Shown here piece after piece: positions 20,990-31,231 of a stretch of DNA of 47,296 nucleotides. The notes under the pieces were generated by a model. It saw only the letters and a list, made by a program, of their open reading frames with translations, had not been told where the DNA came from and searched no databases. The stretch comes from a virus. Lineage: Duplodnaviria; Caudoviricetes. A program made the translations under genes and the position numbers. Each line of letters starts with the position of its first letter. The first letter of the stretch is position 1. The stretch covers positions 1 through 47,296 of IMG/VR virus record IMGVR_UViG_3300021411_000010. The stretch is one strand, 5' to 3'.

Positions 20990-21195
20990 AATTTCACCAT
21001 AATAGATTTTGGACGTGGGATATTATCAATCGCTACTGCTATATTTGTGAATATATCTGTTGCCATTAAACATTTTCCACCAACGATAAGTAATGGTGAT
21101 ATTCCATTACTCTCCTTAATAAAATTATCTCTCCATGAACGAACAAGTTGTGCTGCTAACATTTGATTATCTATAACTAAATTTTTCTTTTTCAC
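20986..21195 (-). CDS. Hypothetical protein
   Basis: GTG start overlapping the polymerase stop. Confidence 0.5.
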   Translation of the reverse strand: MKKKNLVIDNQMLAAQLVRSWRDNFIKESNGISPLLIVGGKCLMATDIFTNIAVAIDNIPRPKSIMVKL

Positions 21196-23669
21196 AATTT
21201 CACCTTCTCGAAAGCTGCATAATGTGTATGACTAATCTCAACATCGCAAGGAATAACTAAATCATAATCTCTCTTAAGAGTACAATATGTTCTAAAATCA
21301 ATCGGTTTTTCCATATGTTTCTTCATAAGTTTTGCGTATGGTTCCCAATTGTTTTCTGGAGCTTGCAGATAGAGAGCATCATGTTTTTCTTGACTCCAAA
21401 GGAAACCTTTGTCATCCTTTAATTCTTCATCAATAGCTAAGGCTGCTTTTTGAATGAGATGAGCTTCAGTACGTTGTGGAATATTCGCATAACCCTCCCC
21501 ATATAAAGAATCGTCCATACGACCGTTAAAAATTCTAACACCCCCAAAAGGATCAATAAGAACGCGAGACGAATCCAATGCATCTTTGATATCTCTCCAA
21601 TAAATCTGTTCTAATTTAGGACTAGCAGCATGAAATATTTCAAGCATCTGTTTAGCTCTCCATTCTGATATATCCATAGGAATTTCATATTTCTGTGCAT
21701 TCGTATTGAATGTAACCATGAATGTATGTTTCTTCATATCGAAATTACCAGCGTGTCTAGTTGTCTTACCTGTATATCTTTCAGGCCCATCTTTCGGAAG
21801 GAAATCAACTATAGGGTGTTTAAAGTTTGGAGAAAGCTCAAGTTTAGACGTATAACCAAAAATCAATCCAGCCGTTCGCCTATGTATATCAACCTTATCG
21901 AATGCTTGTAGAAGTTCCCAATCTTCACTGAGAACGGCTACTATTCTTGCCTGACATTGACTGGCATCAGCCGCTAAGATAACCATTCCATCATCTGCTA
22001 TAAACATGCTTTTAATATCTTTACCTAATCTTCCATGAGCAGATATTGTATGATCCGCAAGACCAATTTTCTTTGGCCTAAGTGGTTTCTTGAGAATTCC
22101 TGTTGATGAACGACATGTTTCAGTCGCTGAAATATTGTAAGCTGATTTGCATCTGCCGTCATAATCAGGACTGAAAGAGATTTGGCGACTTTTCTGATCT
22201 CTGATTCTTCTTTCTTCAAGGACATCATTCAAAATAACCTTTTGTTCTTTTTTCTTTGTTTGTCCAAGAAGAGCAACAATTGAATCTTCACTAGTTGGAT
22301 CTCTTTTTCTTAACTTAAATTTCATAATCTTGTATAGAAGCTCAAACATCTGAGGATAACTCTTAACATTAACTTCCTGACCAATTGCTTCAGTTAATCT
22401 ATCATGCACAACCTTAGCCATCTCTGTATATTTTTTCATTAATTCTTTTTGTCTAGTATGATTAATTCTCTTACCAGTCATTTGTAATTTCAAATATAAT
22501 TTATGTTTCTTCATCATATAATCATAATAATAAGATTTAAGAGGAACATTAAATTTATCAGCAAGTGCTAACAAATCTTCTTCTTGAGCTTCATCTACTT
22601 CATATTCGACAGCGCAGTCTCTAGCATTGTATTCAAGAAACTTATCAAATTTAATTTTGCCCAACTTGAACTCTTTTCCGTCATCTTTATAATATGGTTC
22701 TCTTGTCCATATGCTACTGACAACACATAACCTTTTATCGGGTAATTCGGGAAAGATAACTCTAGTTTTAATAAGGGTGTCTGAATAGACAAATGGAGTC
22801 TCAAATCCGATGAGGCCCAATTTGTATTCGTCGTACATAAAATTATGTCCAATAATTCTGCATCTTCTGAGCTGAGCATCAATCATCCTCCAAACTTCAT
22901 CAAGCTCGTTATCACCCATATCAGTAAGATTGCTATTACCGATAGATCGAAGAAGGGGAATAGAGATTGCGTGATGCTTATTAAAAGCAAATCCAACACA
23001 AACAGGAACACAATTAATGCTCTCAATATCCACAGCAGCTTTATCAAAATTTTCGTATTCGCGAAAAAATCTGTGAACATCGAGACTGTTCCTTGCTATT
23101 GAAAGTGTTCGGGATGGAAGATTTAATTCTTTAGTGAGTGACTCCTCAGCGGCTCGAATAATATCTGCTTCTATTAGTTTTAAATAGACCCAAGATAATC
23201 CTCCGCGAGAGTCTTCAGAATCTGTTGCTCCATGTGAGAACAGAGCGGCTGGATGTATTGTTGCTACAACCTTTGTGTGACCATCATTAGCAGTGAGAAT
23301 AGAACCGCGATAATTAAGAATACCACTAACACCGGCAACGGCTTGTAAAGCAAGATCCCCAATAGCAAGAATACAATTAGGATGAAGTTTATTAATTTCA
23401 TTTTCCCAAAGCTCCTTAACCGAATCATCTATACTAACGTTAATTAAATGTAATTTTTTAAGATCATTTAGAGGAGGACGATACTTAATAACATTAGTTA
23501 TGTATGTGTCTGAACGACGTATTCCAGCTTTGAATAAACAATCATCTAAAATTCTGCCTGTTGGACCAACAAATGGAATTCCTTGTTCATCCTCATAACG
23601 TCCTGGAGCTTCACCTACAATTAATAGTTGAGGAGTGACTGAACCAATTCCAGGGATGTAATTAGGCAT
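21192..23669 (-). CDS. polA: DNA polymerase family A with an N-terminal family-4 UDG-like domain and a 3'-5' exonuclease (SPO1-type architecture)
   Basis: UDG: GEAPG, PFVGPTG, TNVIKYRPP, HPAA. Exonuclease: DIE, GHNFMYD, YNARD. Polymerase: DASQCQAR, KTTRHAGNF, HDA. Confidence 0.92.
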   Translation of the reverse strand: MPNYIPGIGSVTPQLLIVGEAPGRYEDEQGIPFVGPTGRILDDCLFKAGIRRSDTYITNVIKYRPPLNDLKKLHLINVSIDDSVKELWENEINKLHPNCILAIGDLALQAVAGVSGILNYRGSILTANDGHTKVVATIHPAALFSHGATDSEDSRGGLSWVYLKLIEADIIRAAEESLTKELNLPSRTLSIARNSLDVHRFFREYENFDKAAVDIESINCVPVCVGFAFNKHHAISIPLLRSIGNSNLTDMGDNELDEVWRMIDAQLRRCRIIGHNFMYDEYKLGLIGFETPFVYSDTLIKTRVIFPELPDKRLCVVSSIWTREPYYKDDGKEFKLGKIKFDKFLEYNARDCAVEYEVDEAQEEDLLALADKFNVPLKSYYYDYMMKKHKLYLKLQMTGKRINHTRQKELMKKYTEMAKVVHDRLTEAIGQEVNVKSYPQMFELLYKIMKFKLRKRDPTSEDSIVALLGQTKKKEQKVILNDVLEERRIRDQKSRQISFSPDYDGRCKSAYNISATETCRSSTGILKKPLRPKKIGLADHTISAHGRLGKDIKSMFIADDGMVILAADASQCQARIVAVLSEDWELLQAFDKVDIHRRTAGLIFGYTSKLELSPNFKHPIVDFLPKDGPERYTGKTTRHAGNFDMKKHTFMVTFNTNAQKYEIPMDISEWRAKQMLEIFHAASPKLEQIYWRDIKDALDSSRVLIDPFGGVRIFNGRMDDSLYGEGYANIPQRTEAHLIQKAALAIDEELKDDKGFLWSQEKHDALYLQAPENNWEPYAKLMKKHMEKPIDFRTYCTLKRDYDLVIPCDVEISHTHYAAFEKVKL

Positions 23670-23882: not shown

Positions 23883-24119
23883 TCAGTCTATAATAATTTC
23901 ATAGTAATATTTAAAAATATTTTCATAATCTAAACAATGTGGAAGTGCTTCTATATGATCTTCTTTAATCCATTCAATATATTCTTCTCTAGTTGCTTCT
24001 TTTATGATTAATACATTTCCATAATACTCACCAAGTTCTCTACTGTGTAATCCTGCAAAACCTTCATCACCAATCTTTAGTATTCCTAATGGAATAGGCT
24101 TATGGGAACGAAAAATCAT
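23883..24119 (-). CDS. Hypothetical protein
   Basis: Likely start MIFRSH overlapping the upstream stop; IIKEATREEY...YYYEIIID. Confidence 0.55.
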   Translation of the reverse strand: MIFRSHKPIPLGILKIGDEGFAGLHSRELGEYYGNVLIIKEATREEYIEWIKEDHIEALPHCLDYENIFKYYYEIIID

Positions 24120-24370
24120 GCTATATCTTCTCTTTCTTGTTCCTTCTGTTTCTCTCTTATCCATTCTAAAGCTTGATAACCGTATTTAAATTTTTCTAAC
24201 TGAACCTCATGCGTGCGGCTCCAACGAGCTATTAGAAGATCTTCTGAAATTGAGCCTAAACTACGTCTCAACGATTTAGAAGTTTGAACTGTTGTCCATT
24301 TAGGATTAACTAACAATTTTTCTCTATGAAATCTATATGTTTCTTTCGCTCGCTCAATCCATTTTCGCAT
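24116..24370 (-). CDS. Helix-turn-helix protein (ParB-HTH-like)
   Basis: WTTVQTSKSLRRSLGSISEDLLIA has the HTH spacing seen in phage ParB-type proteins. Confidence 0.55.
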   Translation of the reverse strand: MRKWIERAKETYRFHREKLLVNPKWTTVQTSKSLRRSLGSISEDLLIARWSRTHEVQLEKFKYGYQALEWIREKQKEQEREDIA

Positions 24371-24377
24371 TTGTTCT

Positions 24378-24446
24378 CCAAGAGAAAAACACAGAAAAAT
24401 CTCATCTCCGATCTGAGTTTCTTATTCATTTGTTTTTTCCTCTTGG
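24378..24446 (-). other. Long imperfect intergenic hairpin overlapping the SD of the HTH gene
   Basis: Stacked stems CCAAGAG/CTCTTGG, AAAAACA/TGTTTTT, AGAAA/TTTCT and CTCA/TGAG. Confidence 0.6.
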
Positions 24447-24472
24447 TCGTAGCAGGAAGTTAGCCGCTGTGC

Positions 24473-24814
24473 CTATTTAGTAATTAAATAACAAACCAAG
24501 CTTGTACTTAATCCACCAGATGGACTTTTTAATTCAAATATTTTTTTACCATCACATTCATACCAACCAACATTAGATGGGAGCCGAATATCATTTAAGG
24601 CTAGACCTAAATATTTTTTATCCCTAGACCAAACTTCAAAGCCGTATTTCATCGGCCTTAATTGTGATGTGTCAAAAAACATATTCTGTTCTGCAATTAT
24701 GGCTTGAAAAATATTAGCAATGTGTGGAGCAATAATAGCTAATTCTAATGCTGTTACTTTAACTCCACGTCCTAAATCTCCACCATCAGGATCGAATCTT
24801 AATAGAATGCTCAT
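24473..24814 (-). CDS. Hypothetical protein
   Basis: Strong GAGGAGG SD. Confidence 0.7.
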   Translation of the reverse strand: MSILLRFDPDGGDLGRGVKVTALELAIIAPHIANIFQAIIAEQNMFFDTSQLRPMKYGFEVWSRDKKYLGLALNDIRLPSNVGWYECDGKKIFELKSPSGGLSTSLVCYLITK

Positions 24815-24828
24815 TCATCCTCCTCATC

Positions 24829-24937
24829 TAACATAATGGGGTCCGTTTGCCTGATCCCATATTATCATTTGGCATGTTGAGCATGACGGACCAAGCGGCC
24901 ACACTTAAACCAAATGCCGGCGAATCAGACTACGTTA
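24829..24937 (-). ncRNA. Candidate pseudoknotted structured RNA
   Basis: Five nested helices plus a 7-bp crossing helix (GGUCCGU/ACGGACC) fill almost the whole intergenic gap. Every mismatch within the stems is G-U on the - strand. Confidence 0.6.
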
Positions 24938-25360: not shown

Positions 25361-25594
25361 TTACTCGTTACAAGCAATAGCCTTATTTACCATAGTAACT
25401 ACTTTTTCTAAGTCAGTTAATGCTATAGAAAGCTCCCTTGATTTAGGTGCATTCTCACAACATAAAATAGCAAATGCTTTAGCTGCATCTCTAATAAGGA
25501 CATATCTTTCAGGTTGGTCTTCTTTAGGAGCATGATATGTATAACTATTATCAAGTGCTTTCTGAGTTGCTAAATCAATTTTATATTTAGCCAT
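25361..25594 (-). CDS. Acb2/Tad1-like helical hairpin protein (putative immune-signal sponge)
   Basis: YTYHAPKEDQPERY...SRELSIALTDLEKVVTMVNKAIA resembles the Tad1 SRENACALTHVEEALMW helix. Confidence 0.7.
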   Translation of the reverse strand: MAKYKIDLATQKALDNSYTYHAPKEDQPERYVLIRDAAKAFAILCCENAPKSRELSIALTDLEKVVTMVNKAIACNE

Positions 25595-25794: not shown

Positions 25795-26685
25795 TTACAC
25801 CTTCCATCCTGTTCTCTGTTCAAATGGATTAGTTAAGTCTCTAGTTGGAATATTTTCATCTAAATCTATAGGTTTCTTAGGTTCAATTCCTCTACTCTTA
25901 TCAATAAGTTCCTTCCATACAGTATAAAATAATTTATCAGTAATATCAAATTCCTTTACATAATCACCTAGAAGAGGAGATTTAGCATATTCATCTCCCA
26001 TAGCTTCAGTATTAACTATGTATCTTTTCCTACTTGAACCTGAAGAGAAATCGGATAGTTGTGAAAAATGATAAATCTCTGTGAACGAACCTGGAACCAT
26101 ACTAGCTACTTTAGAACCATAAGATACTATAGGATTAGTTCTAATAACTTTCATAGTAACACCACTGCCGCTAAGACTCACTCCAGCTAGAGGATGTGCA
26201 GTCCAGATTACATGACAGGGAAGTTTTTTAGATATATCTATACATTGACTTACTATACTAGTTTCAACTTTGTATTCATCCCAATCTGGAAGAACATCTT
26301 TAATCTTTTTCTTGAGTTTTGGGTCTTTACCGAAATTCATAGACCAGTTAACGGCACCGGCAGTCATAAATGTAATAGAATCATTAATGATAGCAAAGTA
26401 ACGACAATCATTAGTAAAATCAATAAGTTTATTAAGATATGCATTGGCATTGTCCGAGCCGTAAACATCATATTCAATATTGTCCAGAATTTTCTTAGCA
26501 AGAGAACCAAACCTTTTCTCTGTGAAATACGTAGTTAGTTCAACAGGTTTACTTTTATCCCAATAAGCTAAATAGACTGGACCTTCTACTGCGAAAGATG
26601 CTGCGGCTAATGTTTTACCAAATCCAGGACTAGATTTGAATAAGAAAGATATGTTGTTGTCAGGAGTTATTTGTGAAGCTTTCAA
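25795..26685 (-). CDS. Sak4/AAA_24-like ATPase (ssDNA annealing recombinase)
   Basis: SSPGFGKT Walker A, IINDSIT Walker B, HVIWTAH; clustered with SSB and exonuclease genes. Confidence 0.75.
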   Translation of the reverse strand: MKASQITPDNNISFLFKSSPGFGKTLAAASFAVEGPVYLAYWDKSKPVELTTYFTEKRFGSLAKKILDNIEYDVYGSDNANAYLNKLIDFTNDCRYFAIINDSITFMTAGAVNWSMNFGKDPKLKKKIKDVLPDWDEYKVETSIVSQCIDISKKLPCHVIWTAHPLAGVSLSGSGVTMKVIRTNPIVSYGSKVASMVPGSFTEIYHFSQLSDFSSGSSRKRYIVNTEAMGDEYAKSPLLGDYVKEFDITDKLFYTVWKELIDKSRGIEPKKPIDLDENIPTRDLTNPFEQRTGWKV

Positions 26686-27210: not shown

Positions 27211-27294
27211 TGCCGGATTCCAGATTCGAACTGGAAAATCATCTCTGATGTTGGATTTTAAGTCCAATGCGTTTGCCTATTTCGCCAATCCGGC
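27211..27294 (-). tRNA. trnL: tRNA-Leu (anticodon UAA), 84 nt, CCA not encoded
   Basis: GCCGGAT/ATCCGGC acceptor stem with A73; D loop with GG; TTGGA-CTTAAAA-TCCAA anticodon arm; long variable arm CATC-AGA-GATG; TCCAG-TTCGAAT-CTGGA T arm. Confidence 0.95.
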
Positions 27295-30608: not shown

Positions 30609-31231
30609 CTTATTTTTCCTTTGAGCTGCTCCGCTTGAGTCATCTTTTTATTTATTTTTAAATCTTTAAATTCAATTATATTACAATCATATTCTTTTGC
30701 TAAATTTTCAATTATTTGATTAATATGATTTGCAAATTCTATAGTTTTGGAATCTGTAAACCATTCAGAATCTCTATCTAATATAACTAGATGAGTTGGA
30801 ATGACGAATTCTGAACGATAACCCTCATTATATGAGAAAATTCTACCCCATAATTTAATTTTAAGTTCTATAGTATAAAAATTATTATAACCATAAGAAT
30901 AATTCTTATAATTATAAGAATAATAATAACTATTATAATAATTTTTATAATTATAATAATTATAAGAATAATTCTTATGATAATTATAATTATTATGGTT
31001 ATAATAATTTTTATATGAGTAAATACCTTTTGAATTTTCTTTTGTAGGATTTGCTCTTATTATTTCTTTTTTATTCCAAATAAAATCTTGATTAATTGAT
31101 TTAAGAAATTTTTCATTATTATTGAATACATTAGTGATATAATTTGATCTATATCCAATTAATGCTTCTGATTCAGTAAGATCTAATTCACTTATGATTT
31201 TTGATGAATTACCAAATTGACACATTTTCAT
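30605..31231 (-). CDS. Phage protein (IGYR...GIYS...LWG...GYRSE type) with an internal Asn/Tyr low-complexity tract
   Basis: Conserved-looking motifs on both sides of a ~45-aa N/Y tract; AAGGAG SD. Confidence 0.7.
   Translation of the reverse strand: MKMCQFGNSSKIISELDLTESEALIGYRSNYITNVFNNNEKFLKSINQDFIWNKKEIIRANPTKENSKGIYSYKNYYNHNNYNYHKNYSYNYYNYKNYYNSYYYSYNYKNYSYGYNNFYTIELKIKLWGRIFSYNEGYRSEFVIPTHLVILDRDSEWFTDSKTIEFANHINQIIENLAKEYDCNIIEFKDLKINKKMTQAEQLKGKIR
30874..31015. repeat. Quasi-palindromic AT-rich element bounded by a perfect 23-bp inverted repeat
   Basis: TATAAAAATTATTATAACCATAA (30874-30896) is the exact reverse complement of 30993-31015; a 20-bp palindrome lies at 30902-30921. Confidence 0.9.

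Follow-up and report, generated by a model that had tools for sequence, protein, structure and literature searches.

Comparison of three sequences leads us to conclude that the window (the whole stretch of DNA analysed, which is an entire virus record of 47,296 bases) encodes a real, rare and uncatalogued structured RNA on the transcribed strand, whose stems are supported by the alignment and whose pseudoknot is likely. The RNA lies on the minus strand in the replication/recombination operon, directly behind a DUF669 SSB-like gene, at a site where related phages hold unrelated cargo. The reading of its function that we prefer, with a probability of roughly 40%, is that of a small RNA cargo derived from the SSB transcript, with a conserved structure that acts by binding a partner.

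Results

Genomic position of the RNA and evidence from the window sequence

On the minus strand, the operon runs from a Sak4-like AAA gene through a 66-aa gene, an Acb2/Tad1-family gene and the DUF669 SSB-like gene to the RNA element, 3′ of which lie a 113-aa orphan gene, an 84-aa gene and, at a greater distance, a uracil-glycosylase/polymerase A gene (Table 1). The DUF669 match of the SSB-like protein is marginal (22.3 bits versus a cut-off of 21 for Pfam PF05037), and no confident Pfam or PHROG family was obtained for the 84-aa gene. In a Pseudomonas phage, ssDNA binding and the repair of CRISPR cuts have been shown for a DUF669 protein with an AAA partner (PMC13687109). The stop codon of the SSB gene ends 12 nt before P2 in the window. 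The element has one match in the genome; contigs of a run from the same sample cover it without differences, and three other runs gave no coverage. Most of the DNA is contained in runs from a soil sample, its possible source.

Table 1. Coordinates of the RNA, its helices and the neighbouring genes in the window. Counts of paired cells and of double-sided changes refer to the alignment of three sequences.
Feature	Position	Strand	Basis or remark
Conserved RNA core, about 95 nt	24838..24932	-	From the invariant UAG preceding P2 to the invariant CC that follows the crossing helix
Extent in the first-pass annotation, including outer stem P1 (24931-24937 with 24829-24835)	24829..24937	-	P1 register not conserved
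P2, 5′ strand, 9 bp	24922..24930	-	27/27 cells paired, 3 double-sided changes
P2, 3′ strand	24849..24857	-	Pairs with 24922..24930
P3, 5′ strand, 7 bp	24910..24916	-	21/21 cells paired, 2 double-sided changes
P3, 3′ strand	24866..24872	-	Pairs with 24910..24916
Px (tentative), 5′ strand, short helix of 3-5 bp	24898..24903	-	RNAalifold; 15/15 cells paired; weak, three sequences only
Px (tentative), 3′ strand, inside the loop of the second small hairpin	24878..24882	-	RNAalifold
Invariant 4-nt linker directly 5′ of the crossing strand	24893..24896	-	Three-sequence alignment
Crossing (pseudoknot) helix, 5′ strand, 7 Watson-Crick pairs	24886..24892	-	7/7 pairs invariant
Crossing helix, 3′ strand, 2 nt after P2	24840..24846	-	Invariant
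Second small hairpin, 3-4 bp with a loop of 5-7 nt, flanked by the crossing strand and the P3 3′ strand	24873..24885	-	11/12 cells paired
Upstream DUF669 SSB-like gene, 126 aa	24943..25323	-	Pfam PF05037, E 1.5e-4
Acb2/Tad1-family gene, upstream of the SSB gene	25361..25594	-	Pfam PF24729, E 1.4e-14
Sak4-like AAA ssDNA-annealing gene	25795..26685	-	phrog_124, E 7.5e-8
Downstream 113-aa gene, no family	24473..24814	-	No Pfam/PHROG match
84-aa gene, far end of the variable interval	24116..24370	-	Relative ≤1.5 kb downstream of SSB in 66/89 slots

The element had been described in a first-pass annotation as a compact pseudoknotted fold of six helices, and all six pair as drawn in the window sequence at 24829-24937. 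The four non-Watson-Crick pairs are indeed all G-U in the transcribed orientation, the fold ends just before the purine-rich ribosome-binding site (which starts at 24825), and the reported elevation in GC is borne out, with 52% in the RNA core versus 36% in the flanks. The folding z-score of the window sequence was -0.75, and its minimum-energy fold differs from the drawn fold. The combined pattern of P2, P3 and crossing helix was recovered from 3 of 3000 dinucleotide shuffles of the 109-mer, and the same pattern occurred in 23 of 6292 sliding windows of the genome, at about nine separate places. A single window sequence is weak evidence for a fold of this kind; it is the homologs that decide.

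Two homologs follow the same SSB-like gene

Relatives of the SSB gene were gathered from viral, metagenome and genome collections (the metagenome SSB scan took in 80 of 105 loci), and 143 loci were profile-searched for the RNA. Besides the RNA of the window itself (L216), the search returned two homologs, L288 (E 7.5e-16) and L228 (E 5.8e-11), each directly 3′ of the stop codon of the same DUF669 SSB-like gene. Pairwise identity among the three RNAs is 74-80%; for the window and L288, the RNA is 80% identical and the SSB gene 64%. The closest SSB relatives of the window (87-94% identical) are without the RNA, and L288 (62%) has it.

Further searches added no member, so the family stands at three. 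Five DNA patterns, four of them run against viral contigs and one against genome contigs, gave only chance matches, a first loose descriptor gave mostly chance matches, and blastn against INPHARED phages gave no homolog (best E 0.1). Model R1 found the three known members only in 127 sources, and model R3 found no further member in 98 sources, in 20 loci searched with filters off, or in 50 of 64 whole records (0/50, in a scan run without a positive control). Repeating the SSB scan with an alignment of greater diversity yielded no further RNA homolog.

The first-pass annotation had assigned the element to no recognised class, and a check against Rfam 15 agrees: there was no match at the gathering score, and the sole match in the window was a tRNA. 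At E values up to 10, the Rfam covariance models gave three sub-threshold chance matches for the element, and Rfam gave no match for L228 or L288. Full-text literature searches yielded no description of this RNA. Three supplementary files of PMC10690425 contain no match for four motifs of the RNA or for DUF669, although the RNA may still occur among the 8,495 DNA-virus candidates of that study.

P2 and P3 are maintained by double-sided changes

P2 and P3 together carry five double-sided changes in 16 pairs, all of which are paired in all three sequences. The structured RNA of the first-pass annotation is upheld by the alignment in P2, P3 and the second small hairpin; the 7-bp P1 and the first small hairpin did not hold, and the crossing helix is conserved but invariant. 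Only 63% of the P1 cells are paired across the three sequences, each of which can form some short basal stem in a register of its own. In the first small hairpin 80% of cells are paired, and two of its five pairs break, the central pair in both homologs.

RNAalifold instead pairs a strand of the first small hairpin with the loop of the second, in a helix (Px) that includes one G-C to C-G swap. We tentatively let Px replace the first small hairpin, a substitution for which three sequences give weak grounds. The revised model of P2, P3, Px and crossing helix has 84 of 84 cells paired and six double-sided changes, a score reached by 0 of 500 shuffles; because the shuffles take no account of relatedness, and the three sequences tested are also those from which the model was derived, Px is only a lead. 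A variant model with three Px pairs plus the small hairpin has 86 of 87 cells paired and would form a nested double pseudoknot, and on steric grounds the small hairpin may coexist with the inner three Px pairs only.

Seven of the 84 cells in the revised model are G-U on the minus strand, and none is A-C. A G-U pair is an A-C mismatch on the other strand, so these counts identify the minus strand as the RNA strand. In the alignment of the three sequences 64 of 95 columns are invariant, including 24 of the 39 unpaired columns; none of the five columns of the P2-P3 5′ loop is invariant. The core, with its fully invariant crossing pairs, is constrained beyond what its stems need, as might be expected if it binds a partner or is catalytic, and the invariant linker is a candidate for tertiary contacts. 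In a nested energy model, pair probabilities for P2 and P3 are 0.94-1.0 in the homologs and about 0.1 in the window, the sequence of which prefers the crossing helix as a nested stem.

The crossing helix is invariant and probably closes a pseudoknot

All seven pairs of the crossing helix are invariant in the three sequences (21/21 cells paired). Covariation had been proposed as a check on the fold; P2 and P3 covary, and the crossing helix, although it pairs in 3 of 3 sequences, shows no covariation. Because all seven of its pairs are invariant, it has neither passed nor failed this test. Invariant pairs make up 7 of 7 in the crossing helix versus 9 of 16 in P2 and P3 (probability 0.018), and a 7-pair match between the two invariant blocks arose in 2164 of 100000 shuffles of one block. 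Both the invariance of the crossing pairs and the block match favour pairing.

P2/P3 and the crossing pairs are each accessible, so a pseudoknot is the simplest way to hold both together, and we consider it likely that it forms within one molecule. A crossing helix in one molecule would need a U-turn between P2 and P3, and the fixed lengths of these stems fit such a turn. It is unlikely, in our estimate, that the stems are real and the crossing helix is not intramolecular, the two strands instead taking part in an alternative fold or a two-molecule contact, or being kept for sequence-specific binding and complementary by chance. Seven pairs without covariation, the shuffles that also produce a 7-pair match, and the sharp P2-P3 bend that the pseudoknot requires, at which the loop of L228 is small, all speak for that explanation; yet the pairing is perfectly Watson-Crick in 3 of 3 sequences, and P2 and P3 are fixed at 9 and 7 bp, which would fit a closed out-and-back geometry.

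The site after the SSB gene holds unrelated cargo

The comparison of sites was based on 94 distinct sequences that follow the SSB stop codon, of which the 89 that are at least 100 nt long are counted here as slots. The RNA family of the window, L228 and L288 fills three of these. In all three the RNA starts 13-18 nt past the first base of the SSB stop codon, and two directly adjoining tRNA-Leu genes are placed alike. The interval between the SSB gene and the 84-aa gene varies freely among slots. An Acb2/Tad1 gene lies ≤160 nt from the SSB stop in at least 12 of the 89 slots (a lower bound from a single-query search) and a tRNA motif ≤200 nt from it in 6 of the 89; plain hairpins, some with U tails, are among the other occupants. 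Five further RNA folds, grouped by motif and by eye, occur in about 31 of the 89 slots: family B in 16 (three nearly identical), C in four, D in seven, E in two and F in two. An Rfam search over 40 slot loci detected tRNAs only and no known ribozyme class. In many relatives a gene starts within a few bases of the SSB stop, and these have no structure there. The interval from the SSB gene to the 84-aa gene is a cargo site, with unrelated cargo in related phages.

On a tree of 88 SSB proteins, the slot labels need 18 changes, versus a shuffled mean of 18.7, and the families are scattered. The tree was quickly made, with 46 of 82 branches unresolved, and a single origin of the window/L228/L288 RNA family followed by losses is also compatible with the scatter.

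Family B (L156, L164, L166, L168, L169, L188, L193, L205, L206, L207, L214, L231, L246, L266, L267 and L273) occupies the first 150 nt after the SSB stop. A stem closes its three-way junction, one arm of which contains a conserved A-rich internal loop, and a U tail is usual. No other RNA is as common at the site; the family is spread over the SSB tree, has no Rfam match in the loci scanned, and has enough members for a real covariation analysis. Family C (L184, L185, L244 and L289) is a multi-stem RNA of 130-170 nt, closed by a stem and ending in a U tail, in which the junction motifs are conserved. In family D (L161, L203, L213, L219, L237, L247 and L258) a variable hairpin is followed by a conserved stretch that, judged by eye, is able to form a simple pseudoknot. 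The two members of family E (L158 and L290) differ by paired changes in what may be a pseudoknot, and those of family F (L160 and L181) have a four-way junction with a shared internal loop. One-off structured stretches that were left ungrouped follow the SSB gene in L157, L159, L183, L189, L204, L232, L239, L269, L272, L280, L357 and L386.

The motif UAGU lies ≤27 nt past the stop codon in 17 of the 34 slots that bear an RNA; the corresponding counts are 14 of 55 for the remaining slots and 52 of 616 for other gene ends, all from sequences that are not independent. Its position before many unrelated RNAs could reflect a processing or promoter signal, or shared spacer ancestry.

The RNA is independent of the downstream gene

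The RNA is always directly after the SSB gene (3/3), and the gene that comes next differs: it is the 113-aa orphan in the window and the 84-aa gene in L228, and the sequence of L288 ends before one. The 113-aa gene is present in 2 of 89 slots, and its other carrier, L183, is without the RNA; no relative was returned by a search with the 113-aa gene itself. The 84-aa gene is present in 66 slots, nearly all of them without an RNA of the window type.

The riboswitch-like leader offered by the first-pass annotation is disfavoured by these observations, since the RNA follows the SSB gene while the downstream gene changes; its two other suggestions, a ribozyme and a nuclease-resistant RNA, may still apply. 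Control of the downstream gene by a 5′ leader, riboswitch-like or otherwise, would agree with the position of the ribosome-binding site, which in the window and in L228 comes only a few bases after the RNA, with the competing fold of the window sequence, and with the pairing of a loop with the strand after P2, which recalls some aptamer folds. It is nevertheless very improbable: the two carriers in which a downstream gene is visible have two different ones, each of these genes has relatives that are not accompanied by the RNA, the homologs do not favour the competing fold, and there is no Rfam riboswitch match. In the THF and c-di-GMP-II aptamers, the segment that links P2 and P1 base-pairs with a distal loop, and the general crossing-helix topology of the window RNA is alike. 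It differs from these aptamers in having no covariance-model match at E up to 10, no conserved P1 and no fixed class of downstream gene. Membership of a riboswitch class was rejected on the ground that the RNA is not consistently upstream of one gene class.

Comparison with known RNAs

HDV-like and theta ribozymes are of similar size to the RNA, and both are known from phage transcripts (PMC13635239, PMC10879173). If P3, the crossing helix and the small hairpin of the RNA are equated with P1, P2 and P3 of an HDV-like ribozyme, 3 of 3 sequences show the nested order, in which P2 joins P3 and P3 joins P1 directly, a likeness of topology only. Described HDV-like features include G1, a U20-G25 pair, P1.1 and a P4 hairpin (PMC13635239, PMC10879173). 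The 7-bp helix of the RNA, by comparison, starts with C in 3 of 3 sequences, and position 1 of its loop is G in 3 of 3, with A, C and A at position 6. Its hairpin loop pairs with an upstream strand, so there is no P1.1 with the bases after the helix, and those bases lead into an extra 9-bp stem with the 5′ leader and no P4 hairpin. As for the catalytic C at the first position of J4/2, the RNA has an invariant C before AA and the last strand, but this C can pair with the invariant G of the first P2 pair. Membership of the HDV-like class was rejected, G1, U20-G25, a canonical P1.1 and the P4 hairpin all being absent.

Phage pseudo-ToxI RNA blocks host defence by mimicry of a type III antitoxin (PMC3475682). 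Like the window RNA it is a phage-encoded non-coding RNA, and we propose it as a functional precedent for an RNA that counters defence. Pseudo-ToxI is a short repeat array like the host antitoxin (PMC3475682), whereas the window RNA is one copy of about 95 nt and is not known to have a host counterpart. A ToxI mimic was rejected, given one genome match, no tandem repeats and no Rfam antitoxin match.

The operator of T4 gene 32 is also a pseudoknot RNA adjoining a phage SSB gene; both this operator and the GP32-upstream candidates lie 5′ of the gene and control translation (PMC10690425). An operator of this type was rejected, as the window RNA comes after the stop codon, on its 3′ side, in all three carriers and is absent from most relatives. 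The STAXI motif (RF01728) is a pseudoknot found in mobile elements, close to SSB genes and to other genes for DNA handling; it is repeated two or three times, often with UUCG loops (PMC2864571), whereas the window RNA is single and larger. STAXI was rejected, there being no match to the Rfam model.

Discussion

In the reading of the RNA as trans-acting cargo, the RNA would be transcribed together with the SSB message and then either be excised or persist as a stable product of decay, which must also be the case for the tRNAs at this site. Once released, it would fold into a compact pseudoknot through the crossing helix, with a U-turn between P2 and P3, and would act in trans by binding a partner molecule through its invariant core. 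The partner may most plausibly be a component of host defence, a guess made by analogy with pseudo-ToxI. We favour trans-acting cargo because unrelated complex folds, tRNAs and an anti-defence gene alternate at the site and because a plain hairpin would suffice for a role in cis. Against it, the family consists of three sequences, the tight positioning behind the SSB stop would suit a cis role just as well, and the RNA is present once and does not resemble ToxI. Neither a sigma-70-like promoter nor a terminator was called at the element. Only in L228 (1/3) does the element have a U-rich tail behind it, and with no terminator called in the window an intrinsic terminator was also rejected. Stop-codon readthrough was dropped, as there is an in-frame stop after five codons.

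The RNA could also act in cis, marking or protecting the SSB message at its 3′ end, with the pseudoknot blocking 3′-to-5′ decay or setting a processing point that leaves SSB in excess over the downstream genes. Its fixed place just past the stop codon in 3 of 3 carriers is consistent with this, as are the U-tailed hairpins and the tRNAs that occupy the site elsewhere, both of which likewise end or cut transcripts, and the enrichment of UAGU near the stop in RNA-bearing slots. We regard a cis role as possible but doubtful, since a plain hairpin would do, the invariant unpaired core and the several unrelated complex folds are left unexplained, and many relatives have a gene starting almost at the stop and no structure. 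An undescribed self-cleaving ribozyme is quite improbable. Such a ribozyme would cut the operon transcript at the foot of P2, close to the invariant UAG, and part the SSB message from the rest. The size of the RNA, its one or two pseudoknots and its invariant junction bases fit small ribozymes, and the succession of a 7-bp helix, a crossing strand, a 3-bp hairpin with a 7-nt loop and a return strand echoes the HDV core, as does an invariant C then AA before the last strand. Unrelated ribozyme classes in one gene neighbourhood are a known pattern (PMC10085705), and theta ribozymes process phage tRNAs (PMC10879173); the HDV hallmarks are nonetheless absent from the RNA, and the slots scanned with Rfam contained no known ribozyme class.

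That the element is no functional RNA at all, and reflects chance pairing or a single-stranded DNA structure, we consider extremely unlikely. The folding z-score and the other genome places with the same helix pattern would agree with it, and SSB-linked motifs such as STAXI have been considered as possible DNA structures (PMC2864571). It is opposed by two homologs found with strong E values in the same site and with double-sided changes, and by a transcribed strand with G-U and no A-C cells.

The fold is new to Rfam and to the literature found, and at about 95 nt it is readily transcribed. More broadly, a single position in one phage group accommodates no fewer than six uncatalogued RNA folds, interchangeable with tRNAs and with a known anti-defence gene family, and pairs of DUF669 and AAA proteins are themselves a counter-CRISPR module (PMC13687109). 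A more far-reaching proposal, which we put forward tentatively and hold to be doubtful, is that the site serves a soil-phage group as an exchange site for undescribed RNA folds that act as counter-defence decoys or ligand sponges beside Acb2/Tad1 and tRNAs, and that the double-pseudoknot RNA is one of them, or else the first of a new class of self-cleaving ribozymes. If the RNAs after the SSB gene do counter host defences, the short list of RNA-based counter-defences widens; if any of them self-cleaves, it represents a new ribozyme class; and if they only protect the end of the message, they are a modest set of new motifs.

Other features of the window and its relatives

The family A DNA polymerase encoded at 21192-23669 on the minus strand has an N-terminal uracil-DNA-glycosylase-like domain. 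A long irregular hairpin lies between the 113-aa and 84-aa genes (24376-24447, minus strand) and ends at the next ribosome-binding site. The single SSB relative in the genome collection (L322) is on a 4-kb contig from an archaeal bin; it is probably a mis-binned phage piece, and the bin is not taken as evidence for the host. At 30870-31020, an AT-rich, low-complexity stretch inside a 208-aa gene passes the helix-pattern scan on both strands, which is probably a repeat effect. A tRNA-Leu with a UAA anticodon is encoded at 27211-27294 on the minus strand, and tRNA-Leu genes also sit after the SSB gene in several relatives.
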